This document shows positions 41,230 to 56,968 of a DNA stretch of 64,000 nucleotides, in pieces. Numbering within the stretch: the stretch's first letter is position 1; the number at the start of each line of letters is the position of its first letter. The DNA is from a virus. Lineage: Duplodnaviria > Heunggongvirae > Uroviricota > Caudoviricetes. The stretch lies in the IMG/VR virus record IMGVR_UViG_2609459800_000001. One strand, 5' to 3'. Below the pieces are notes generated by a model. That model searched no databases. It worked only from the letters and a program-made list of their open reading frames with translations, and was not told the origin of the DNA. Position numbers and translations under genes: made by a program.

Positions 41230-42081
41230 TTATTGCGCGCTTTCGGGGTTGTCGTTTACTGGCTGCCCCTTCTTGGTTTTACGGCTGCGCGTAACTGATG
41301 CGGCTGACTTAACCTTTTTCTCTTCGCGAGTGATGGCAATTTGTTTTTTTACATTTTCAATATCTGCCAGGCGATATATTTTTGCTTGCGGCCAGCGGTC
41401 GCAGATGATCGGTTCTATGGAGTCATAAAGGCTAAATTTTGCTTTTTCGAATTCACCGTTGATGATAATTCCATCACGGAGAGTTTCATCGCAGATAAAC
41501 ACGCCACACAGTGGCACATGGTAACTAACTGATTTACCATCATTGTAGTTAGGGCTACTGGAAATGTAGTGGACGCGCAGCATTGTTTCGCTAAAGCCGT
41601 GTACGCGCATACGGAATTTTTCATCCTCCGGGTACTGCCTCATTAGCTCTTTTGTTGCTTCCAGGTTCTCTATGTATTTCGCACTGTGCTCATTGATCCC
41701 CGCGCTTTTTTGGATGCGAATGTCCTTATCAATCAGATGAATAATGCGGCCAGCGGTCATGTTGACGCTGTTCACAGCTTCTGTCTGATAAGTTGTAACC
41801 TTGCGCACACCGCGAAGGATGTTAGGCACTGGATATAAAATAGTCTTTGGGATATTGAGGTCTGGGTACTGTTCCAGTTCCCGCGCCATTAAAGTCCATT
41901 TATCAATTTCAGCCTGAATGCTGTCAGTTTCTTTGAACGGTAGAACGACAACCGGGCGTACAGGACGACCGTCGCTGGCTGTATCAACGTGTTGGGCGCG
42001 TGCAACAGCTTTTTTTAGAAAGAGATCCCTGAAGCTGACGAACTCCTGGTACAGTTGTTCGCCGTAGACATAATTTATCAT
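41230..42081 (-). CDS. c1: C1 repressor of lysis
   Basis: ORF track 283 aa MINYVYGEQLYQEFVSFRDLFLKK...; size and sequence recognised as P1 C1. Confidence 0.85.
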   Translation of the reverse strand: MINYVYGEQLYQEFVSFRDLFLKKAVARAQHVDTASDGRPVRPVVVLPFKETDSIQAEIDKWTLMARELEQYPDLNIPKTILYPVPNILRGVRKVTTYQTEAVNSVNMTAGRIIHLIDKDIRIQKSAGINEHSAKYIENLEATKELMRQYPEDEKFRMRVHGFSETMLRVHYISSSPNYNDGKSVSYHVPLCGVFICDETLRDGIIINGEFEKAKFSLYDSIEPIICDRWPQAKIYRLADIENVKKQIAITREEKKVKSAASVTRSRKTKKGQPVNDNPESAQ

Positions 42082-43234: not shown

Positions 43235-44266
43235 ATGTCTAATTTACTGACCGTACACCAAAATTTGCCTGCATTACCGGTCGATGCAACGAGTGATGAG
43301 GTTCGCAAGAACCTGATGGACATGTTCAGGGATCGCCAGGCGTTTTCTGAGCATACCTGGAAAATGCTTCTGTCCGTTTGCCGGTCGTGGGCGGCATGGT
43401 GCAAGTTGAATAACCGGAAGTGGTTTCCCGCAGAACCTGAAGATGTTCGCGATTATCTTCTATATCTTCAGGCGCGCGGTCTGGCAGTGAAAACTATCCA
43501 GCAACATTTGGGCCAGCTAAATATGCTTCATCGTCGGTCCGGGCTGCCACGACCAAGTGACAGCAATGCTGTTTCACTGGTCATGCGACGGATCCGAAAA
43601 GAAAACGTTGATGCCGGTGAGCGTGCAAAACAGGCGCTGGCGTTCGAACGCACTGATTTCGACCAGGTTCGTTCACTCATGGAAAATAGCGATCGCTGCC
43701 AGGATATACGTAATCTGGCATTTCTGGGGATTGCTTATAACACCCTGTTACGTATAGCCGAAATTTCTAGGATCAGAGTTAAAGATATCTCACGTACTGA
43801 CGGTGGGAGAATGTTAATCCATATTGGCAGAACGAAAACGCTGGTTAGCACCGCTGGTGTAGAGAAGGCACTTAGTCTGGGGGTAACTAAACTGGTTGAG
43901 CGATGGATTTCTGTCTCTGGTGTGGCTGATGATCCGAATAACTTCTTGTTTTGCCGTGTCAGAAAAAATGGTGTTGCCGCGCCATCTGCCACCAGCCAGC
44001 TATCAACTCGCGCCCTGGAAGGGATTTTTGAAGCAACTCACCGATTGATTTACGGGGCTAAGGATGACTCTGGCCAGAGGTACCTGGCCTGGTCTGGACA
44101 CAGTGCCCGTGTCGGAGCCGCGCGAGATATGGCCCGTGCCGGAGTTTCAATACCGGAGATCATGCAAGCTGGTGGCTGGACCAACGTAAATATTGTCATG
44201 AACTATATCCGTAACCTGGATAGTGAAACAGGGGCAATGGTGCGCCTGCTGGAAGATGGCGATTAG
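43235..44266 (+). CDS. cre: Cre tyrosine recombinase
   Basis: ORF track 343 aa MSNLLTVHQNLPALPVDATSDEVRKNLMDMFRDRQAFSEHTWKMLLSVCRSWAAWCKLNNRKWFPAEPEDVRDYLLYLQARGLAVKTIQQHLGQLNMLHRRSGLPRPSDSNAV...; recognised as Cre. Confidence 0.95.
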   Translation: MSNLLTVHQNLPALPVDATSDEVRKNLMDMFRDRQAFSEHTWKMLLSVCRSWAAWCKLNNRKWFPAEPEDVRDYLLYLQARGLAVKTIQQHLGQLNMLHRRSGLPRPSDSNAVSLVMRRIRKENVDAGERAKQALAFERTDFDQVRSLMENSDRCQDIRNLAFLGIAYNTLLRIAEISRIRVKDISRTDGGRMLIHIGRTKTLVSTAGVEKALSLGVTKLVERWISVSGVADDPNNFLFCRVRKNGVAAPSATSQLSTRALEGIFEATHRLIYGAKDDSGQRYLAWSGHSARVGAARDMARAGVSIPEIMQAGGWTNVNIVMNYIRNLDSETGAMVRLLEDGD

Positions 44267-44283
44267 CCATTAACGCGTAAATG

Positions 44284-44300
44284 ATTGCTCTAATTCTTTG
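44284..44300 (+). promoter_or_regulatory. C1 operator-like site
   Basis: ATTGCTCTAATTCTTTG, 13/17 to consensus, upstream of 44317 gene. Confidence 0.45.
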
Positions 44301-44316
44301 ATATTTATGGTGACAT

Positions 44317-44628
44317 ATGAGAAAGGATTTCAACATCGACGGAAAATATGTAGTGCTGTCTGTGAGCACTAATATTCAGTCGCCAGCCGTCATTGTCACT
44401 GTAAAGCTGAGCGATAGAATGCCTGATATTGACTCAATATCCGTTGCGTTCCCTGTCAGAAGTATGCGTAGTGCTGAACATTTCGTGATGAATGCCACCG
44501 AGGAAGAAGCACGGCGCGGTTTTGCTAAAGTAGTGTCTGACTTTGGCGAACTCTTGGATAAGGTTAACAATGTCCTTTCAATCAGTTCAGCAAGGTCCAA
44601 AGCGTTAACAGCTTCCATGATGAAATAA
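44317..44628 (+). CDS. hypothetical protein downstream of cre (cra-like position)
   Basis: ORF track 103 aa. Confidence 0.4.
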   Translation: MRKDFNIDGKYVVLSVSTNIQSPAVIVTVKLSDRMPDIDSISVAFPVRSMRSAEHFVMNATEEEARRGFAKVVSDFGELLDKVNNVLSISSARSKALTASMMK

Positions 44629-44633
44629 AAAAA

Positions 44634-44652
44634 GCCTGGCAAGGAGCCAGGC
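44634..44652 (-). terminator. hairpin with adjacent A/T run (terminator for leftward transcription)
   Basis: GCCTGGC-AAGGA-GCCAGGC preceded on plus strand by AAAAAAA. Confidence 0.45.
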
Positions 44653-44755
44653 TGCACTAAAGACCGGGTTTGTGTTCCGCATCCAATCAATCAGAAAGGA
44701 GTATAGCACATAGATACTAAAGTGAAAAAATGTGACTGAAGATAAACAATATAAC

Positions 44756-44772
44756 ATTGCTCTAATTGATTG
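44756..44772 (+). promoter_or_regulatory. C1 operator-like site followed by TATAAT
   Basis: ATTGCTCTAATTGATTG then TGTTATAATTGAG. Confidence 0.45.
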
Positions 44773-44976
44773 TTATAATTGAGCCGTGGCGTTAGTCAAC
44801 TACGAAGACGTGGCCATTACCTACTTAACCAGTTCCGCCAGGGCAGCAGAGTAGGTTTCATCTCGGATGTACCATGCCTGCATGTTTTCCAGAGAAGCCC
44901 GCGAGGTTCCCGGACAGGACTCTGCCATTGCGATAGATTAAATGCAATAACCTAAAAGCGATAACGTGGTGGAAAA

Positions 44977-45614
44977 ATGTTCATCAGAGCTTATTTAAGG
45001 GCATCAACGGAAGATCAGTTTGCCGATCGGGCAAAAGAGATGCTGGGGCAGTTTGTTCAGGAGCGGGGACATAAAATAGCCAGTTACTACCGGGAGAACA
45101 TAAGCGGTACAAAACTCGACCGCCCGGAACTGGGACGCTTACTGATGGACAGCCACCGCAATGATATTTTACTGGTCGAGCAAATTGACCGCCTGACCCG
45201 TCTGAGTAACAGTGACTGGATTACGCTGAAAAAGCAGATAGAACAACACGAACTGCGGATTGTCGCCTGGATGTATCCACCTCATGGCAGGCGCTGTCAG
45301 ATAAAGACCCTTCGCAGGCTGACCCAATCACCCGCGCCGTGATAACCGCCATCAATAACATGCTTATCGACCTGATGGCCGCGATGTCGCATAAGGACTG
45401 GCTGAGCCGTCGCCAACGGCAACAACAGGGAATTGAACGGGCTCATACGCTGGGTAAATACCGGGGATAACAGGCCGATCAGGAACGGCATCAGAAAGTC
45501 CTGTACTACCGGCAGGTCAAGAAACTAAGTATCCATGAAACGGTAGATGCGACAGGGTACAGTCCTTCACAGATATGCCGCATTCAAGAGAGCCTGAATC
45601 GGAATAAAAAGTAG
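44977..45614 (+). pseudogene. serine recombinase (resolvase) pseudogene, frameshifted and interrupted by a stop
   Basis: N-terminal catalytic domain MFIRAYLRASTEDQ (track ORF 44977..45342); continuation in another frame ...DPITRAVITAINNMLIDLMA...GKYRG, TAA stop, then HTH-like LSIHETVDATGYSPSQICRI. Confidence 0.6.
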
Positions 45615-45713
45615 CCCTGGCGTTAATGGATTACCTTTCCAGGCTAAGCTCATTGCTCCTGTCAGATACGCAGCCCTGCCTGTAATAATACAGACTGGGC
45701 AATGTGTTGCCAC

Positions 45714-46115
45714 TCAGGCTGACAACTGTCGGAGGATATCCGCTGTATTATAATGAGCCCGTTTTTCTATATATTTCCCGTCCTTCAGAGTGATCATAAA
45801 TATCAGAGAAAAGCGCACTTTCCTGCCGCTGGCAGGATGCCCAAGGAATTCACGGGTCTGCACGCCTTCAAAGATAAGATAGCAGGCGACTTTATCGTCT
45901 CTGGCAAAGATTTCGTGGATACGCATTGTAAATCCCGGAAAAGCATCCATATGGCCTTTTTCCTGTACGATAAACTGCTCACTGTTCAGCGGTGTATCCA
46001 CCTGAGAATAGAATTTAAAATCCGGATGGCAGAGGTTTTTCACCTCATCATATTTATTTTCTTCAATCAGACGATAAAACTTTTTAACCGTTTTGATATT
46101 TTCTTCAACAGACAT
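45714..46115 (-). CDS. SnoaL-like / NTF2-fold protein
   Basis: ORF track 45714..46127; start set at MSVEENIKTVKKFY with GAGGTG upstream. Confidence 0.5.
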   Translation of the reverse strand: MSVEENIKTVKKFYRLIEENKYDEVKNLCHPDFKFYSQVDTPLNSEQFIVQEKGHMDAFPGFTMRIHEIFARDDKVACYLIFEGVQTREFLGHPASGRKVRFSLIFMITLKDGKYIEKRAHYNTADILRQLSA

Positions 46116-46123
46116 ATTGCACC

Positions 46124-47113
46124 TCATTTTTCAGTTTCTTTACCTGCCGGAATATTGCCTGCCGGCGTTCCGTTAAATGTTTTTCGCCATTCACTGGGAC
46201 TGACTCCCATCCGCTGCCGGAATATCTGCCGGAAAGTAATGGTGGACTGAAAGCCTGCCAGTTCGGCAACCCGCTCCACTGCAATATCTGTACTTTCCAG
46301 CAGTTCCTGACTCCGCCGGAGACGCTCTGTGGTGATCCACTCCCAGACCGTCATTCCTGTGGCCGAATGAAAATGGCGTGTAAGCGTTCTTCGGCTCATG
46401 GAGGCTAAATGGGCCAGAGTGTCAATATCATGTGGTAATCCCAGATTTGCGGACAGGTATTCCAGCAGCTGGTTTATGCGGTTATCGGACGTACTTTTGG
46501 GAATAAGCAGTTGCCGGTACTGTGCCTGTCCGCCTTCCCGGTAAGGAGGAGCAACCATCCGGCGGGCTATTTGATTAGCCGTATATCTGCCCAGGCGTTG
46601 CCGGATCACATGGAGACAACAGTCCAGTGCTGCGGCTGTACCGGCTGAGGTGATAATCCGCTCGTCCTCAACATAAAGCACGTTCACGTCCAGATGAACC
46701 GCCGGGAAAAGCATCTGGAAATCCCGTTCAGCCTCCCAGTGCGTGGCCGCCCGTTTACCATCCAGCAGACCGGTGTAAGCCAGAACAAAACTCCCCAGGC
46801 ACAGGCCCACCACCTGAGCTCCATTTTTCCAGGCTGCAACCAGGGCACTGAGCAGAGTTTCAGAAGGCCTTTCATGGATGTGTTTCCAGAAAGGAATAAT
46901 AACGATATCGGCCTCTGCCAGTGCATCAAGCCCGTATTCTGCCCTCATCGCCGTACCTTCAGCAGACCAGATAAGCCCGGGCTCTTCCGCACATACCCGG
47001 CGGCTGAAGAGAGCCTTCCCTTCCAGTATCTCCCCGAACAGGATTAGTGGAACGGAGACATGAAATGTACTGAACCCTTCGGTGATCACTATAGCGACAG
47101 TGATGGTGGACAT
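46124..47113 (-). CDS. GlxA-family transcriptional regulator (DJ-1/PfpI domain plus AraC-type HTH)
   Basis: ORF track 329 aa; C-terminal AraC HTH (RRTLTRHFHSATGMTVWEWITTERLRRSQELLESTD). Confidence 0.65.
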   Translation of the reverse strand: MSTITVAIVITEGFSTFHVSVPLILFGEILEGKALFSRRVCAEEPGLIWSAEGTAMRAEYGLDALAEADIVIIPFWKHIHERPSETLLSALVAAWKNGAQVVGLCLGSFVLAYTGLLDGKRAATHWEAERDFQMLFPAVHLDVNVLYVEDERIITSAGTAAALDCCLHVIRQRLGRYTANQIARRMVAPPYREGGQAQYRQLLIPKSTSDNRINQLLEYLSANLGLPHDIDTLAHLASMSRRTLTRHFHSATGMTVWEWITTERLRRSQELLESTDIAVERVAELAGFQSTITFRQIFRQRMGVSPSEWRKTFNGTPAGNIPAGKETEK

Positions 47114-47128
47114 GCCATGGCCTCCGGG

Positions 47129-47905
47129 TTAAATCGTAACTGATTCACCATCAGCAGGAACGGCAACTGACGCCTGGATCTGGTTATCGCGGGCATATTC
47201 CAGCAGTTCCTGACGGGTCAGCAGACAGTGGTTTACGGCCTCCATGTGCGTTGCCACAATCAGTGCCTCTGGTACGATACGATGGGCTTTCAGGACATCT
47301 TCCCTGCCGAAAATAATGGGGCCGAATCCGAGAACATGCGCCCAGCCCGTATTCATAATAACGACGCCAGGATTGAACCGACGTAAATTATCCTCTACAG
47401 CCTTGATCCAGATGGTATCCCCGACCAGATAGAGCGTTTTTTCGGACGGATGCTGGAAGACCACCCCACAGGCATCCCCAAGGATTGCTGCGAGTTGCGG
47501 GTTAGCATAGGCTTCGTCCGAACCATGCTGACAAACGGTTTTAATAAGTGAAATTTCGCCAAATGTGCTTTTGTCAGACAGAATAACAAGGTTGCTGAAG
47601 CCCTGGGAACGCAGGATCTTTTCATCATGTTCATTCTGAACATAAATCAGTTTATCTTTCGGGATGTGCGCAACAGCCGCTTCATCCCAGTGGTCAGGGT
47701 GTGTGTGGGTGACAATAATGGCATCCACATCCAGCAGTACATCAAGGTCAAAAGGCAGCTCAGTCATCGGGATGCGGATATCTGACCGGGCCGTTCCTTC
47801 GAATCCCGGATAGGCTTCTTTTTTCGCAAGCATCGGATCGACAAGAAATTTTTTACCAGCGTAAGAAATGAGTTGTGTGGCGTTACGTACCTGGATGATC
47901 TTCAT
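47129..47905 (-). CDS. MBL-fold metallo-hydrolase
   Basis: ORF track 258 aa; THTHPDHW metal-binding motif. Confidence 0.65.
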   Translation of the reverse strand: MKIIQVRNATQLISYAGKKFLVDPMLAKKEAYPGFEGTARSDIRIPMTELPFDLDVLLDVDAIIVTHTHPDHWDEAAVAHIPKDKLIYVQNEHDEKILRSQGFSNLVILSDKSTFGEISLIKTVCQHGSDEAYANPQLAAILGDACGVVFQHPSEKTLYLVGDTIWIKAVEDNLRRFNPGVVIMNTGWAHVLGFGPIIFGREDVLKAHRIVPEALIVATHMEAVNHCLLTRQELLEYARDNQIQASVAVPADGESVTI

Positions 47906-48120
47906 TTTAGCAAGTCCTGTATTGGTTAATAACCATCAGAGCCATATCATGATGGCCTAATGTGATAATTATGATTAAATCAGGCCTGCCTGCCACTGAA
48001 ATAATGCCATATTTGGATGATATCAGGCCATTCTTCTGGCTCTCAGGTTTCAGGAATATGTCTGCTGAAAGCGGGTACAGATCTGACGCATTGAAGGGAA
48101 GTATCGTCCTTTAAGGCTTA

Positions 48121-48510
48121 TTGATGTCAGCCAGTACAAAAAATCATCTTAACGTACAATATCTTCCGTTTCCCAAACGGAGCCCACCAACGACGGAGGA
48201 ACGGCGCGTCGCCAATGCTCTTGGCGCTCTCCCCTGCATTGCCTGCTATATGCATGGAGTAATATCTAATGAGGTGTCTCTGCACCATATCGCCGGTCGT
48301 ACCGCGCCGGGTTGTCATAAAAAGCAATTGCCACTTTGTAGATGGCACCACCAGCATGCAGCTCCGGCGGAAGTAAGAGAAAAATACCCATGGCTGGTCC
48401 CTGTTCATGCCGATGGTGTGGTTGGAGGCAAGAAAGAATTCACCTTGCTGAACAAGTCAGAGATGGAGTTACTGGCTGACGCCTATGAGATGGCAAATAT
48501 CATGCACTAA
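48121..48510 (+). CDS. HNH-motif protein (possibly Ref-like)
   Basis: ORF track 129 aa; CIACYMHG...HHIAG...CRWHH. Confidence 0.4.
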   Translation: MMSASTKNHLNVQYLPFPKRSPPTTEERRVANALGALPCIACYMHGVISNEVSLHHIAGRTAPGCHKKQLPLCRWHHQHAAPAEVREKYPWLVPVHADGVVGGKKEFTLLNKSEMELLADAYEMANIMH

Positions 48511-48698
48511 TAAATATATTATTTTTAATGATAAATGATTGACAACTGACAAGTGACTTCAGTCAGAATCATCACACGCCCGGTACGGATGGATCCCTTT
48601 TCAAATATTCCATGGACGGCACAGTCTGAGTACCGGGCGCTACCTTCAGTTGTATTGCTAAGCCGCCGCTGGTGGCTTTTCTTTTTTGTAGGGGCGCT

Positions 48699-49340
48699 AT
48701 GGATAAGAAAATATGCGTTGTTTCAATGAGCGTCGGCAAACCGGCGTCAATGACTGCTGCATGGATCAACAATGAGCTGATAATGGCTGAGCGGACCAGC
48801 TACCCTGAACGCCGCCGCGATATGGAACTCCAGCTGCTGCGCGAATTGCGAGAAAAAGAGGAAAAGGGTTTTATCGTGCTGGTGGAAGAGGAAAACAGCT
48901 TTATTACCGGTCAAGTTGGCCAGCGTGTAAGGTTGCGTGATCCCTTCATGAACGGCAGACCGGTACTGATTGAAGCAATGCAGATTTACAAGGAATTGGA
49001 ACGCCAGAAAGCGATCAAGTTACCGCGCAAGGAATCCGGCAAATACATCCTTCACCAAAGCATCTTCGATTCCGAACACGATAAAAAAGGCGATGAATTT
49101 TTCAACATCAACTGGAGCGAAATAACGACAGAGCATGTTCTGACGTTACTATGTTGCTTTGCGACGGAATACAACAACGTTGCCAGCGCCGACTACATCA
49201 GGGCAATGGCTGGAGAAGTTGAAGCCCGCCAGGAACCATCGTTACTAAGTCCACTTATTAACATAATTCTGGGTACCCAGACACTGGAACAAAAAAAAGT
49301 GCCGAAAGGGGTATTAACAGGCAAGCATAATTATTTCTAA
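48699..49340 (+). CDS. hypothetical protein
   Basis: ORF track 48672..49340; start set at Met 10 (MDKKICVVSMSVGK). Confidence 0.4.
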   Translation: MDKKICVVSMSVGKPASMTAAWINNELIMAERTSYPERRRDMELQLLRELREKEEKGFIVLVEEENSFITGQVGQRVRLRDPFMNGRPVLIEAMQIYKELERQKAIKLPRKESGKYILHQSIFDSEHDKKGDEFFNINWSEITTEHVLTLLCCFATEYNNVASADYIRAMAGEVEARQEPSLLSPLINIILGTQTLEQKKVPKGVLTGKHNYF

Positions 49341-49538: not shown

Positions 49539-50147
49539 ATGTCTAATACCTCGGCAAATGAAATTGTACCGCACTTACCGCTAATTTTCGAAAATGAAGC
49601 TAATGGGATTCTTCAGGATCTGGCCTATACTCCATCGCTTATGGGGTTGATGATGTTCCCGACAGAAGAGGAGCTGAAAGCAGCGAGAAGCTACATAATT
49701 AACGTTTTTGAAGAGTGTTACCGAGCCGGTCATTTGCGCATTATGGGCTTTACTAATGAAGAAAACTTGTTCGGATACGCCTTAATCTTCGGACATCCAT
49801 CGGGAAATTTTCCGTTGTACTGTCATAAAATATATGTATATGAGCAATATCGTGGTAATGGACTTGGAAGTAATATACTGGCAGAAATACTTGCATTTCC
49901 AAATGAGGTCGCTTTGATTTGCCAGTCTGATTTGGTTCCTTTTTATGAATCAGCCGGAATGCACTTTAAAGGAAATTACACCACTCCATCAGTCGCCAAT
50001 TTCAAAAAAACTCGCGGCATGTATGAGGGGCTTTGTTTGATGAGCACTGAAAAAAATGCAAACTCTAATGGTGTACCTATATTCATGCTGAACGATAACG
50101 ATATTGATAACATCATACAGGCTATCGCATCATCGGCACCACGATAA
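49539..50147 (+). CDS. GNAT-family N-acetyltransferase (AT-rich accessory gene)
   Basis: ORF track 202 aa; acetyl-CoA motif YVYEQYRGNGLGSNIL; AT-rich gene and 200-bp AT-rich upstream region. Confidence 0.55.
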   Translation: MSNTSANEIVPHLPLIFENEANGILQDLAYTPSLMGLMMFPTEEELKAARSYIINVFEECYRAGHLRIMGFTNEENLFGYALIFGHPSGNFPLYCHKIYVYEQYRGNGLGSNILAEILAFPNEVALICQSDLVPFYESAGMHFKGNYTTPSVANFKKTRGMYEGLCLMSTEKNANSNGVPIFMLNDNDIDNIIQAIASSAPR

Positions 50148-53070: not shown

Positions 53071-53309
53071 TCCTGGGCTTCGTTTGGGAAACGTACAATA
53101 TTGTACGGTTGCGCTATTGCGGTAGGGTGTACTCCAACGCTATACGGTCTTTGGCAGACCTTTAGGGAAATGAGATAAGCTAAATGCGATAAGAGAAAAG
53201 CAATAACTTAAAGGCAATAGCTGATTACGATAAATCAATCAGTTACTTATCAGTATCGATTAAAAAATGCTCCTAACGTACAATAATTTCCGTTTCCCAA
53301 ACCGACCCC
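53071..53309. repeat. left copy of ~240-bp inverted repeat (MITE-like, short terminal inverted repeats)
   Basis: Near-perfect reverse complement of 56729-56968; each copy bounded by GTTTGGGAAACG...CGTTTCCCAAAC. Confidence 0.8.
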
Positions 53310-53320
53310 TAATAGCCGGA

Positions 53321-53500
53321 CTACGGACGCGCAATAATTCGCCCCTGACTTTCCAGCAGTTGGTAAGCATGTCCGACGGTCATGAAGCTCATGCCGCTGC
53401 TGGCGACCTGTTCGCGCAGTGACGGCAGACGATCGCCGGGTCGCCAGACGCCAGAGGCGATCTGTTCGCAAAGTTGTTCAGCCAGACGCTGGTATTTTTT
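53321..53500 (-). pseudogene. N-terminal fragment of a GntR/MocR-family regulator (winged HTH), no start codon, truncated after ~60 codons
   Basis: Minus-strand translation KKYQRLAEQLCEQIASGVWRPGDRLPSLREQVASSGMSFMTVGHAYQLLESQGRIIARP then stop next to the repeat. Confidence 0.5.
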
Positions 53501-53670
53501 ATTCTGGTTTCTCGTCGGTCAATGCAGGTGAGCCTCGCAGTGTATAACAGTGAATAAAATTCACAACGATTTGCAAACTGTTATGGTTAAATATGTCTGT
53601 TCTGTTTCTGCCCCTCATTGCCTCACACGCTTAGAATTGCGCTGAATCAATTTTTAATGCGGAGTCAGGC

Positions 53671-55071
53671 ATGTTTGGTCTTGATGCGTATCACCTGGCA
53701 AGGATCCAGTTCGCCTTTACAGTTTCATTTCACATTATCTTTCCGGCGATCACCATTGGGCTTGCCAGTTATCTGGCGGTGCTGGAAGGCCTTTGGCTAA
53801 AAAGCAAAAATCCGGTCTGGCGCTCGTTGTACCACTTCTGGTCAAAAATATTCGCCGTAAATTTCGGCATGGGCGTGGTTTCCGGTCTGGTGATGGCCTA
53901 TCAGTTCGGCACCAACTGGAGCGGTTTTTCGGAATTCGCAGGCAGTATTACCGGGCCGTTGCTTACCTATGAGGTGCTGACCGCTTTCTTCCTTGAAGCC
54001 GGATTCCTCGGGGTGATGCTGTTTGGCTGGAATAAAGTCGGTCCGGGTTTGCATTTCTTCTCAACCTGCATGGTGGCGCTTGGCACCCTCATTTCCACCT
54101 TCTGGATCCTGGCGTCTAACAGTTGGATGCAAACGCCGCAGGGGTTTGAGATCGTCAACGGCCAGGTTGTGCCCGTGGACTGGTTCGCCGTTATCTTCAA
54201 TCCTTCGTTCCCTTATCGGCTGCTGCATATGTCCGTCGCCGCATTTCTCAGTAGCGCGCTGTTTGTCGGCGCTTCGGCAGCCTGGCATCTGCTGCGCGGC
54301 AACGCAACGCCAGCCATTCGCACGATGTTTTCCATGGCGTTGTGGATGACGCTTATTGTCGCGCCGGTGCAGGCGTTAATCGGCGATATGCATGGGCTGA
54401 ACACCCTGAAACATCAGCCAGCCAAAATCGCCGCGATTGAAGGTCACTGGGAAAACCCGCCGGGTGAGCCCACGCCGCTGCTGCTGTTTGGCTGGCCGGA
54501 TATGGAACAGGAACGCACCCGCTATGGACTGGCGATCCCGGCGCTGGGAAGCCTGATCCTGACGCACAGTCTGGATAAACAGGTTCCGGCGCTAAAAGAA
54601 TTCGCCAAAGAGGATCGCCCTCACTCGACGATCGTGTTCTGGTCGTTTCGCATCATGGCCGGCCTGGGCATGTTAATGATCCTGCTAGGGCTCTGTGCGC
54701 TCTGGCTGCGCTACAGGCAGCGCCTCTACACCTCGCGCCCGTTCCTGCGCTTTGCGCTATGGATGGGACCCTCGGGGCTCATCGCCATTCTCGCGGGCTG
54801 GGTGACCACTGAGGTCGGACGCCAGCCGTGGGTGGTGTACGGTTTACAGCGTACTGCCGACGCGGTGTCGGCCCACGGCGATTTACATATGAGCATTTCG
54901 TTGCTCGCTTTCTTTGTTGTCTACAGCTCAGTCTTTGGCGTCGGCTACAGCTATATGATTCGCCTGATCCGCAAAGGCCCGCTGGAAGATGATTCCGCGC
55001 CGCCGCCGGGCACACCCGCCAGGCCGCTTTCCGCCGCCGTCCTCGATTCTCAACATAAGGCACATCGCTAA
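53671..55071 (+). CDS. cytochrome bd-type ubiquinol oxidase subunit I (short Q-loop, CioA-like)
   Basis: ORF track 466 aa; MFGLDAYHLARIQFAFTVSFHIIFPAITIGL..., GRQPW motif; lacks the long Q-loop insert. Confidence 0.8.
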   Translation: MFGLDAYHLARIQFAFTVSFHIIFPAITIGLASYLAVLEGLWLKSKNPVWRSLYHFWSKIFAVNFGMGVVSGLVMAYQFGTNWSGFSEFAGSITGPLLTYEVLTAFFLEAGFLGVMLFGWNKVGPGLHFFSTCMVALGTLISTFWILASNSWMQTPQGFEIVNGQVVPVDWFAVIFNPSFPYRLLHMSVAAFLSSALFVGASAAWHLLRGNATPAIRTMFSMALWMTLIVAPVQALIGDMHGLNTLKHQPAKIAAIEGHWENPPGEPTPLLLFGWPDMEQERTRYGLAIPALGSLILTHSLDKQVPALKEFAKEDRPHSTIVFWSFRIMAGLGMLMILLGLCALWLRYRQRLYTSRPFLRFALWMGPSGLIAILAGWVTTEVGRQPWVVYGLQRTADAVSAHGDLHMSISLLAFFVVYSSVFGVGYSYMIRLIRKGPLEDDSAPPPGTPARPLSAAVLDSQHKAHR

Positions 55072-56081
55072 TGGGTATTGATTTATCGGTTATCTGGTTT
55101 GTGATCATCGTTTTCGCCACGCTAATGTATATCGTGATGGATGGATTCGATTTGGGTATTGGCATTCTGTTTCCTGTCACACGAAACGCAGAGGATCGTG
55201 ATGTGATGGTCAATAGCGTCGCGCCGGTGTGGGACGGTAATGAAACCTGGCTGGTGCTGGGCGGCGCGGGGCTGTTTGGGGCTTTCCCGATGGCCTATGC
55301 GGTTATTATCGATGCGCTGACCATTCCGTTGACGCTGATGCTGATCGGACTGATTTTTCGCGGCGTGGCCTTCGAGTTTCGCTTCAAGGCCACGCCAGCC
55401 CACCGCCCATTTTGGGACCATGCTTTTCTCGGCGGGTCGATTCTGGCTACCTTCGCCCAAGGGATCGTGGTTGGCGCAGTGATCAACGGTTTCCCGGTGA
55501 CCGGTCGCAGCTACAGCGGCGGGCCGTTCGACTGGTTAACCCCCTTCACTCTGTTCTGTGGCGTCGGACTGGTCGTTGCCTATGCGCTCTTAGGCGCAAC
55601 CTGGCTGGTGATGAAAAGCGAAAATCCGCTTCAGGATAAAATGCGCAGCGTCGCGAAAAAACTGCTGCTGGCCCTGCTGTTGTCAATTGCGATAATCAGC
55701 CTCTGGACACCGTTAGCGCATCCGGCGATCGCCGACCGTTGGTTTACGCTTCCCAACCTGGGCTATCTGCTGCCGGTTCCGGTGCTGGTGATCGCGTTCA
55801 GCGTCTGGTTATGGCGCACACTGGGTCGTCCGGAAAACCACACGTTTCCGTTTGTGCTGACGCTCGGGCTAATCTTCCTTGGTTTCAGCGGCCTGGGCAT
55901 CAGTATCTGGCCGCACATTATTCCGCCTTCGGTTACCCTCTGGCAGGCAGCCGCCCCCGCCCAGAGTCAGGGGTTTATGCTGGTCGGTGCGCTGCTCATC
56001 ATTCCGGTGATTTTGGTGTACACCTTCTGGAGTTACTATGTGTTTCGCGGCAAAGTGCAACATGGCGAGGGGTATCACTGA
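55071..56081 (+). CDS. cytochrome bd-type ubiquinol oxidase subunit II
   Basis: ORF track 336 aa polytopic membrane protein; ATG overlaps subunit I stop. Confidence 0.8.
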   Translation: MGIDLSVIWFVIIVFATLMYIVMDGFDLGIGILFPVTRNAEDRDVMVNSVAPVWDGNETWLVLGGAGLFGAFPMAYAVIIDALTIPLTLMLIGLIFRGVAFEFRFKATPAHRPFWDHAFLGGSILATFAQGIVVGAVINGFPVTGRSYSGGPFDWLTPFTLFCGVGLVVAYALLGATWLVMKSENPLQDKMRSVAKKLLLALLLSIAIISLWTPLAHPAIADRWFTLPNLGYLLPVPVLVIAFSVWLWRTLGRPENHTFPFVLTLGLIFLGFSGLGISIWPHIIPPSVTLWQAAAPAQSQGFMLVGALLIIPVILVYTFWSYYVFRGKVQHGEGYH

Positions 56082-56209
56082 TGCAACATTCTCTCTGGAA
56101 ACGCCTGATGTGGCTGGTCATCCTTTGGGGCGGCAGCGTGTTGGCGCTGGCGGCGGTGGGCATGTTTTTTCGCCTGCTCATGACTGCGGCGGGGTTTAAA
56201 GCGCATTAA
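56081..56209 (+). CDS. CydX-like small membrane subunit (42 aa)
   Basis: ATG overlaps subunit II stop (TGATG); MQHSLWKRLMWLVILWGGSVLALAAVGMFFRLLMTAAGFKAH; below ORF-track cutoff as an independent ORF. Confidence 0.5.
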   Translation: MQHSLWKRLMWLVILWGGSVLALAAVGMFFRLLMTAAGFKAH

Positions 56210-56313
56210 GCGGACACCTCGCCGGATGTCGGCTTTGGGCCAGGCGTTAACCGGCGGAAATAAATACCAACACAAAGGCCCGGTAAACGCCACCGGGCTG
56301 ATGTCGCAAAGGA

Positions 56314-56728
56314 TTAAGGTTTACGCTTCGGCAGCGTTTTCATCAGATCTTCCGGACTGACGGAACCCACCACGCTGCCCGGCAGCGGCATTTTAAGAAT
56401 GTGATCTTCAATCTTGCCGATAACGTGCATTTCACACGGGCGACAGCCAAATTTCAGCGTCAGCACCTCATCACCGTTGACCAGTTGCATTGGCGTCGCT
56501 TTCCAGCTTTTGATGTTACCTTTCGCCTGTTTCGGGCAAAGATTAAAGGCAAAACGCAGGCAATGCTTGGTGATCATCACAGGCACATCGCCCTTTTCTT
56601 GATGCGCTTCATACGCCGCGTCGATCAACTGTACGCCATAACAATGGTAGAACTCACGCGCCTTCTGGTTATAGACGTTTGCCAGAAAACTCAGATGCGT
56701 CTGCGGGTAGACCGGCGCGGGATCGGAG
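56314..56728 (-). pseudogene. 3' fragment of a larger gene truncated at right inverted repeat (function unassigned)
   Basis: Track ORF 56314..56628; frame stays open upstream (…PDPAPVYPQTHLSFLANVYNQKAREFY…) to the repeat boundary with no start. Confidence 0.4.
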
Positions 56729-56968
56729 GGGTCGGTTTGGGAAACGGAAATTATTGTACGTTAGGAGCATTTTTTAATCGATACTGATAAGTAACTGATT
56801 GATTTATCGTAATCAGCTATTGCCTTTAAGTTATTGCTTTTCTCTTATCGCATTTAGCTTATCTCATTTCCCTAAAGGTCTGCCAAAGACCGTATAGCGT
56901 TGGAGTACACCCTACCGCAATAGCGCAACCGTACAATATTGTACGTTTCCCAAACGCAGCCCAGGTAC
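56729..56968. repeat. right copy of ~240-bp inverted repeat
   Basis: Reverse complement of 53071-53309. Confidence 0.8.

Follow-up and report, generated by a model that had tools for sequence, protein, structure and literature searches.

The 64,000-nucleotide stretch analysed here (IMG/VR record IMGVR_UViG_2609459800_000001, Caudoviricetes; the whole of it is called the window below) belongs to a P1-like phage-plasmid that carries 3,365 bp of foreign DNA (44821-48185) inside the ref gene. The best explanation for this island, to which we give a probability of roughly 70%, is that it is the remnant of a Tn3-family transposon that entered ref and brought with it a predicted isothiocyanate-detoxification operon. 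The operon comprises genes for a metallo-beta-lactamase (MBL)-fold hydrolase of the SaxA family, a GlxA-type transcriptional regulator and a SnoaL-like protein.

One-ended Tn3-family remnant in ref

The genes for the C1 repressor, cra, cre and c8 follow one another in the window as they do in P1, and BLAST against P1 (NC_005856) gave collinear homology of 95–96% up to window position 44820 (P1 2026), which picks up again from about 48186 (P1 2313) and continues through ref and mat. Between these points the foreign DNA stands in place of 286 bp of P1 (2027-2312). In P1 itself c8 directly adjoins ref (2077-2637), and the sequence lost in the window takes in the P1ref promoter, the ref start codon (2077) and ref codons 1-78. 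A preliminary description of this DNA, made from the letters alone, had placed a cargo island at 44629-47950, downstream of cre. These coordinates do enclose all of the genes it named, but they begin about 190 bp and end about 235 bp too early; c8, which sits between cre and the recombinase gene, was missed, as were the insertion into and truncation of ref, and the right-hand terminal repeat lay outside the limits given.

More complete relatives of the element are found on other replicons. An Enterobacter IncHI2 plasmid (L003) has an intact resolvase gene divergent from that of a 995-aa Tn3-family transposase (NF033527, 1129 bits), and the IncF plasmid pEcFELIX705.1 (L008) holds a near-complete relative of 6,419 bp with both terminal repeats, in the order left repeat, tnpA (with an internal stop), res, intact tnpR, SnoaL-like gene, GlxA-type gene, MBL gene and right repeat. 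The L008 element has TATAG, a 5-bp target duplication, on either side, and since the same gene set lies between its repeats, this copy identifies the three genes as passengers of a Tn3-family unit transposon. No name was found for this 6,419-bp L008-type transposon. The parts of the island that correspond to the transposon, and the gene it interrupts, are as follows.

44821-48185, no strand assigned: whole foreign segment, one-ended Tn3-family remnant (BLAST against P1; same junctions in 51 PLSDB plasmids at ~99% identity)
44825-44929, minus strand: internal fragment of a Tn3-family tnpA, 105 bp, about codons 623-657 of 995, with neither start nor stop (73% identity to the tnpA genes of L003 and L008)
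44929-44976, plus strand: res remnant, the last 48 bp of a 168-bp tnpA-tnpR intergenic region, about 120 bp being gone (aligned to the intact region in L003, L005 and L008)
44977-45607, plus strand: tnpR (serine resolvase) pseudogene (Pfam Resolvase, E 2e-17; 94% DNA identity to the intact 213-aa recombinase of L003)
48148-48185, minus strand: Tn3-family terminal inverted repeat, 38 bp, GGGCTCCGTTTGGGAAACGGAAGATATTGTACGTTAAG read inward (1 mismatch to the right repeat of L008)
48186-48510, plus strand: truncated ref, from about codon 79 to the end (Pfam RecA_dep_nuc, E 1e-50, C-terminal domain only)

Of TnpA, a DDE transposase of about 1,000 aa when complete, only the 105-bp piece is left in the island. 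This fragment lies in the expected orientation relative to tnpR, as in L003 and L008, and matches genes annotated as 'Tn3 family transposase' in many plasmids, with a best match of 78% identity outside P1-like plasmids; RefSeq treats it as a partial pseudogene. It abuts the final 48 bp of the res region. The neighbouring open reading frames (ORFs) 44977-45342 and 45339-45470 are pieces of one serine-recombinase gene, which the preliminary description had taken to be broken by a frameshift and a stop. Alignment with intact 213-aa relatives confirmed both lesions, a 1-bp deletion after 45264 (codon 97) and a premature stop in codon 165 (45468-45470), and mapped a third, the loss of 10 bp after 45586, which is not seen in the closest database relative, NZ_CP097001.1. 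In a 99.5%-identical record RefSeq lists the same locus as 'recombinase family protein; frameshifted; internal stop'.

At the right-hand junction, the outer end of the 38-bp repeat is position 48185, the base at which ref resumes; this end was fixed by a copy on the IncF plasmid L005, beyond which the DNA is unrelated. The repeat matches the left repeats of L003 and L008 at 30 of 38 bases. In L005 itself (10576-11941) the right repeat of the transposon is split by IS5075, an insertion sequence (IS) that targets the terminal repeats of Tn21/Tn3-family transposons. On the left, no partner for the repeat was found for the island, either in a search allowing 9 mismatches or in a general repeat search, and thus of the flanking inverted repeats that had been proposed as a check only the right one is present. 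With one repeat, 105 bp of tnpA, 48 bp of res and a dead tnpR, the island is a one-ended remnant and is therefore not mobile on its own. The suggestion that a Tn3-family element had delivered the cargo, which originally leaned on the resolvase, now finds support in the right-hand repeat, the tnpA fragment at the left, the 94% identity of tnpR and the 6,419-bp relative.

The history chosen here is the most economical one. A Tn3-family transposon of about 6.4 kb, with tnpA, res, tnpR, the three passengers and its repeats, would have jumped into ref of a P1-like ancestor at about P1 2312/2313. One deletion inside the element would have run from tnpA codon ~623 to res, another would have taken everything from tnpA codon ~657 across the left repeat and on to position 2027 of P1, and point decay of tnpR would have come last, leaving a remnant that now travels with the phage-plasmid. 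The order of these deletions and of the decay is what we infer from the most economical reconstruction.

The whole stretch 44300-48600 recurs with identical junctions and ~99% identity in 51 PLSDB plasmids, among them plasmids of E. fergusonii and an IncY plasmid of Cronobacter sakazakii, and some of these copies carry later IS insertions. Since the junctions are shared, a single ancestral event is indicated. In a set of 5,426 complete E. coli genomes, at least 80% of the island was present in 71 and a P1-like cre-c8 segment in 689, and about a tenth of P1-like elements therefore carry the island. Isolates from poultry, pigs and humans are numerous among the carrier records listed. The trio, which the preliminary description had proposed to look for elsewhere, is found in these plasmids as well as in the IncF transposon of L008. 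The closest database relative (L007; NZ_CP097001.1, 421781-433155) is 100% identical over cre-c8 and 99.5% over the island, and its stretch is recorded inside a 5.17-Mb E. coli chromosome record and not on a plasmid, which reflects either an integrated P1-like element or an assembly join.

Other origins were weighed against transposition into P1. The segment may have been acquired already degraded, through recombination with a remnant-bearing plasmid, and in keeping with this no repeat accompanies either the left junction or the tnpA/res junction inside the element, both being illegitimate joins, while the mosaic cassette alleles (synonymous divergence, dS, of 0.06 to 0.97 against L008) imply that recombination among copies does occur. 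The right junction, however, matches the outer end of the terminal repeat to the base, a signature of transposition, and the same degraded left end was seen in none of the three non-P1 plasmids inspected for annotated context (IncF L005, IncF L008 and the Serratia IncI1 plasmid L006). Acquisition in a degraded state is accordingly considered improbable. A backbone origin, with the resolvase and the three cargo genes as ordinary conserved genes of P1 relatives, draws its only support from their position beside cre and c8 and is already refuted: c8 and ref adjoin in P1, the island occurs in only ~10% of the E. coli genomes with a P1-like cre-c8 segment, and it was found in none of 50,697 phage records, including P1, P7, RCS47 and SJ46, where only the c8 and ref flanks match, covering at most the 22% of the query that is backbone.

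Transposition into ref followed by decay remains the preferred origin, and the observations that weigh against it concern the parent element and the left end. The left end being deleted, a target duplication cannot be shown in the window. The left and right repeats of L008 differ at 8 of 38 positions, the tnpA fragment of the window is only 73% identical to tnpA of L008, and the divergence of the cassette (45714-47905 against L008 7796-9987) is uneven, dS climbing steeply from 0.06 in the SnoaL-like gene to 0.37 in the regulator gene and 0.97 in the hydrolase gene. Such a rise along the operon indicates recombination between different cassette lineages, the elements being mosaics. For these reasons the parent and the L008 element were not the same; the true parent is a mosaic relative that was not recovered intact.

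A predicted isothiocyanate-detoxification operon

The cargo was described beforehand as a minus-strand unit of three genes for MBL-fold, GlxA-type and SnoaL-like proteins, and all three are indeed intact ORFs.

47906-48147, minus strand: upstream region of the saxA-like operon, with promoter-like sites at 48046-48017 and 47996-47968 by consensus scan
47129-47905, minus strand: SaxA-family MBL-fold hydrolase, 258 aa, intact (PDB 6BRM, E 1e-92, residues 1-256 against 1-257; 54% identity)
46124-47113, minus strand: GlxA-type regulator, 329 aa, intact (Pfam DJ-1_PfpI, HTH_18 and HTH_AraC)
45714-46115, minus strand: SnoaL/NTF2-fold protein, 133 aa, intact (Pfam SnoaL, E 9e-24, 84 bits)

The gaps between the genes are 15 bp and 8 bp, which is consistent with the hydrolase, regulator and SnoaL-like genes forming one operon. 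The proximal ~180 bp of the upstream region (47906 to ~48090) is conserved between the window, L008 and the Serratia plasmid, and the stretch beside the terminal repeat has diverged and has lost bases in the window; the region 47906-48147 may act as the promoter of the operon. No RNA family was matched in 44300-48700. Between the window and L008, the ratio of nonsynonymous to synonymous divergence (dN/dS) is 0.09 for the hydrolase, 0.11 for the regulator and 0.10 for the SnoaL-like gene, while tnpA and tnpR have decayed, and judged from these ratios all three cargo genes are under purifying selection.

Isothiocyanates (R-N=C=S) are the mustard-oil toxins of plants, antibacterial products of the glucosinolates of crucifers. 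The hydrolase matches over its full length the crystallised 'metal-dependent isothiocyanate hydrolase SaxA' (PDB 6BRM), and another homologue of solved structure, 3RPC, gives E 1e-74. The HxHxDH motif (H67, H69, D71, H72) is invariant across 17 aligned sequences, 6BRM and 3RPC among them, as are H127, D163 and H220. Profile matches are to Pfam Lactamase_B_2, Pfam and NCBIfam both giving generic MBL-fold matches only. SaxA converts R-N=C=S and water to an amine and carbonyl sulfide, and saxA is widespread in Enterobacterales, where it falls into five clusters in all of which activity is reported to be retained; functional members share as little as 44.9% identity, and many copies lie on mobile elements (PMC7036374). 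The published clusters, CL1-CL5, have as representatives ALG88671.1, AAO55377.1, ANJ99341.1, QAA04876.1 and AFR03517.1. Isothiocyanate hydrolysis is therefore the best-supported prediction for the substrate of the MBL hydrolase, a prediction that the preliminary description had left to be made, and the cargo would most likely let E. coli break down isothiocyanates.

The regulator combines a DJ-1_PfpI domain (residues 6-171) with HTH_18 (residues 233-311), the DJ-1/PfpI plus AraC-type arrangement of the GlxA type, and RefSeq names it 'GlxA family transcriptional regulator'. The FtrA equivalog (NF006902) was rejected as a more specific assignment, its score of 311.7 bits lying under the cut-off of 425. 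Gene neighbourhoods of saxA were surveyed in the 80 best matches, each from a different species, in a GTDB-representative genome set. An orthologue of the regulator (44–68% identity) lies no more than 300 bp downstream of saxA on the same strand in 64 of these loci and is adjacent and divergent in 4, while the contig ends too soon in 2; the pair is also present in all nine distinct contexts with precomputed gene calls. The saxA-regulator pairing is ancient, and together with the homology to SaxA it supports the earlier view of the unit as a detoxification cassette with its own regulator. In the chromosomal locus of Pectobacterium brasiliense (L009, 4069-7832) an isochorismatase-fold gene is followed, after a 383-bp gap, by saxA and then by two tandem GlxA-type regulators. 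Lineages differ in the accessory genes that surround the saxA-regulator core.

The probable role of the regulator is toxin-responsive control of the operon, perhaps by way of Cys105, which occupies the nucleophile-elbow position ('GLCLG') of the DJ-1/PfpI domain and is invariant in 72 sequences. Isothiocyanates react with thiols, and covalent sensing through this residue is for that reason an attractive possibility.

The SnoaL-like start that gives 133 aa agrees with the length of the homologues, an alternative ATG at 46127 giving 137 aa. The AlphaFold model (pLDDT 96) is an NTF2/SnoaL barrel, and the nearest solved folds are the SnoaL2/AclR polyketide enzymes, at 21–23% identity and TM 0.89–0.92; the fold search with this model returned generic NTF2/SnoaL neighbours only and no functional clue. 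The SnoaL ester-cyclase equivalog (NCBIfam NF033407) was rejected at 28.3 bits against a cut-off of 200. The family is small, with 46 homologues at E<=1e-10. Within the 133-aa subfamily (56–63% identity) all seven contexts examined, chromosomal or metagenomic, are saxA-regulator clusters, from Enterobacter, Vibrio, Rhodanobacter and metagenomic contigs and in two gene orders, and more distant homologues (41–48% identity) have no saxA linkage. Since the gene is present in only 2 of the 80 saxA species loci, it is to be seen as an accessory partner of SaxA and not as part of the core pair, and the protein probably performs an accessory step beside isothiocyanate hydrolysis. In Priestia aryabhattai (L100, 1036-2686) a distant homologue (47% identity) adjoins a phosphotriesterase-family (PF02126) hydrolase and not SaxA, which hints that the wider SnoaL-like family pairs with metal-dependent hydrolases.

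The function of the cargo admits other readings. The three genes might be a regulated detoxification or catabolic unit for another compound, such as an electrophile, a lactone or an ester, with isothiocyanate hydrolysis as a side activity of the family. Such a unit would fit the generic MBL-fold profile matches, the statement that saxA in non-plant Enterobacterales 'may serve additional purposes' (PMC7036374), the presence of a SnoaL partner without a role in the known one-step isothiocyanate reaction, and the phosphotriesterase-type neighbour of the Priestia homologue. It is nevertheless judged unlikely, given the full-length match to 6BRM (E 1e-92), the retention of activity in all five clusters, including those of non-pathogens (PMC7036374), and the fact that an alternative substrate is known for no member. 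Far less probable still is an anti-phage defence or counter-defence module. Such modules are common in the variable regions of P1-like elements, the island does lie in one of these regions, and SIR2 and dGTPase defence genes occur at nearby variable loci of relatives, but none of the three proteins matches any PADLOC model at E<=0.01, and orthologous pairs are chromosomal in many species, among metabolic genes.

Isothiocyanate detoxification is therefore retained as the predicted function, and the following should be set on the other side of the balance. An identity of 54% is no proof of the same substrate, the activity being predicted from homology. In non-plant bacteria SaxA may also do more than act on plant isothiocyanates (PMC7036374). 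As regards sensing, the conservation of Cys105 speaks only weakly for a response to isothiocyanates. A cysteine at this position is common across the wider GlxA family.

Loss of ref, neighbouring loci and significance

The truncation of ref is a consequence of the insertion and deletion. The apparent 129-aa 'Ref' ORF opens at a TTG at 48121, and DNA of the transposon end supplies 21 codons at its start and two bases of codon 22; RefSeq calls it 'Ref family protein, missing N-terminus'. Since the window lacks both the P1ref promoter and the 76-aa N-terminal region of the protein, this element is probably ref-null, as island-bearing elements in general very probably are. The C1-controlled P2ref promoter and the Oref operator survive at 44751-44779 and now point into the dead tnpR, antisense to the cassette. 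In P1, ref makes lysogens more sensitive to ciprofloxacin (PMC4713147), and its loss may benefit the host. Island-bearing elements would be natural ref-null relatives of P1, relevant to the P1-enhanced killing by ciprofloxacin (PMC4713147).

The P1-like genes to the left of the island, which give the window its setting, are these.

41230-42081, minus strand: C1 repressor (P1-like order)
43235-44266: cre (P1-like order)
44317-44628: c8

To the right, just past mat, an ORF for a GNAT-family acetyltransferase (202 aa, 49539-50147) lies in a patch of 36–40% GC. P1 has the EcoPI res/mod genes at this position, which makes it another replacement in the variable region. Further on, two Tn3-derived miniature elements of 235 bp (53075-53309 and 56728-56962) are identical at 234 of 235 positions and mutually inverted, each bounded by 38-bp repeats related to that of the island and containing res-like AT-rich repeats. 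They flank a GC-rich segment (54–60%) with the genes for cytochrome bd oxidase subunits I (53671-55071) and II (55071-56081), and the whole of 53075-56962 looks like a non-autonomous Tn3-family composite cargo element.

The carrier, the enzyme and the regulator are all of known kinds, RefSeq already names the genes generically, and the understanding of transposons or of P1 is unchanged by what is a well-explained cargo island. In the record descriptions and literature searched, no description was found of a SaxA assignment for the E. coli cassette, of its carriage by a P1-like element or of the linkage of SnoaL-like proteins to SaxA, and a literature search for phage-plasmids together with isothiocyanates returned nothing relevant. 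Should the predicted function be correct, an enzyme that degrades isothiocyanates is carried on a phage-plasmid in about 1% of completely sequenced E. coli. This would bear on the tolerance of gut bacteria to the toxins of cruciferous plants and on the way in which these bacteria may lower the availability of such toxins, including sulforaphane, and plant-toxin resistance would join the non-antibiotic cargo that phage-plasmids can move. The SnoaL-fold family is uncharacterised and tightly linked to SaxA. A bolder proposal is that the SnoaL-fold protein is an undescribed second enzyme in the detoxification of isothiocyanates or glucosinolate products and evolved as an obligate partner of SaxA, that a transducible phage-plasmid spreads dietary-toxin resistance among the gut E. 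coli of brassica-eating animals and people, and that the knockout of ref is a second benefit to the host; taken as a whole this is doubtful.

Comparison with known systems

With Tn3-family unit transposons the lineage of the island shares a terminal repeat of the type GGGG/GGGC...ACGTTAAG and the divergent arrangement of tnpA and tnpR around res, with cargo between tnpR and the right repeat; the 5-bp target duplication is seen in the intact relative L008. Unlike such transposons, the window keeps one repeat, 105 bp of tnpA, 48 bp of res and a tnpR pseudogene. The SnoaL-like protein has the fold of the polyketide enzymes SnoaL, AclR and SnoaL2 and a match to Pfam SnoaL above threshold, but differs from them in its identity of 21–23% and in having no polyketide context, being linked to saxA instead.

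The saxCAB locus of Pseudomonas encodes the hydrolase SaxA, the regulator SaxC and the uncharacterised SaxB (PMC12903958), and like the island trio it joins an enzyme gene to a transcription factor of its own and a small, uncharacterised protein. An equivalence of the two sets, with SaxC as a DJ-1/PfpI-AraC protein and SaxB as a SnoaL-like protein, is no more than a lead; no Pseudomonas syringae locus was among the 80 best matches of the genome scan. The island hydrolase shares its fold, length and metal ligands, at 54% identity, with SaxA (6BRM; the sax genes of Pseudomonas syringae and Pectobacterium and the saxA plasmids of the cabbage root fly gut), and carriage on mobile elements in Enterobacterales is common to both. 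It differs from known SaxA in that it is encoded together with a GlxA-type regulator and a SnoaL-fold protein, on an island without the saxD/F/G efflux-pump genes, and also in its host, which is gut E. coli of humans and animals and not a plant pathogen, and in its carrier, a P1-like phage-plasmid.

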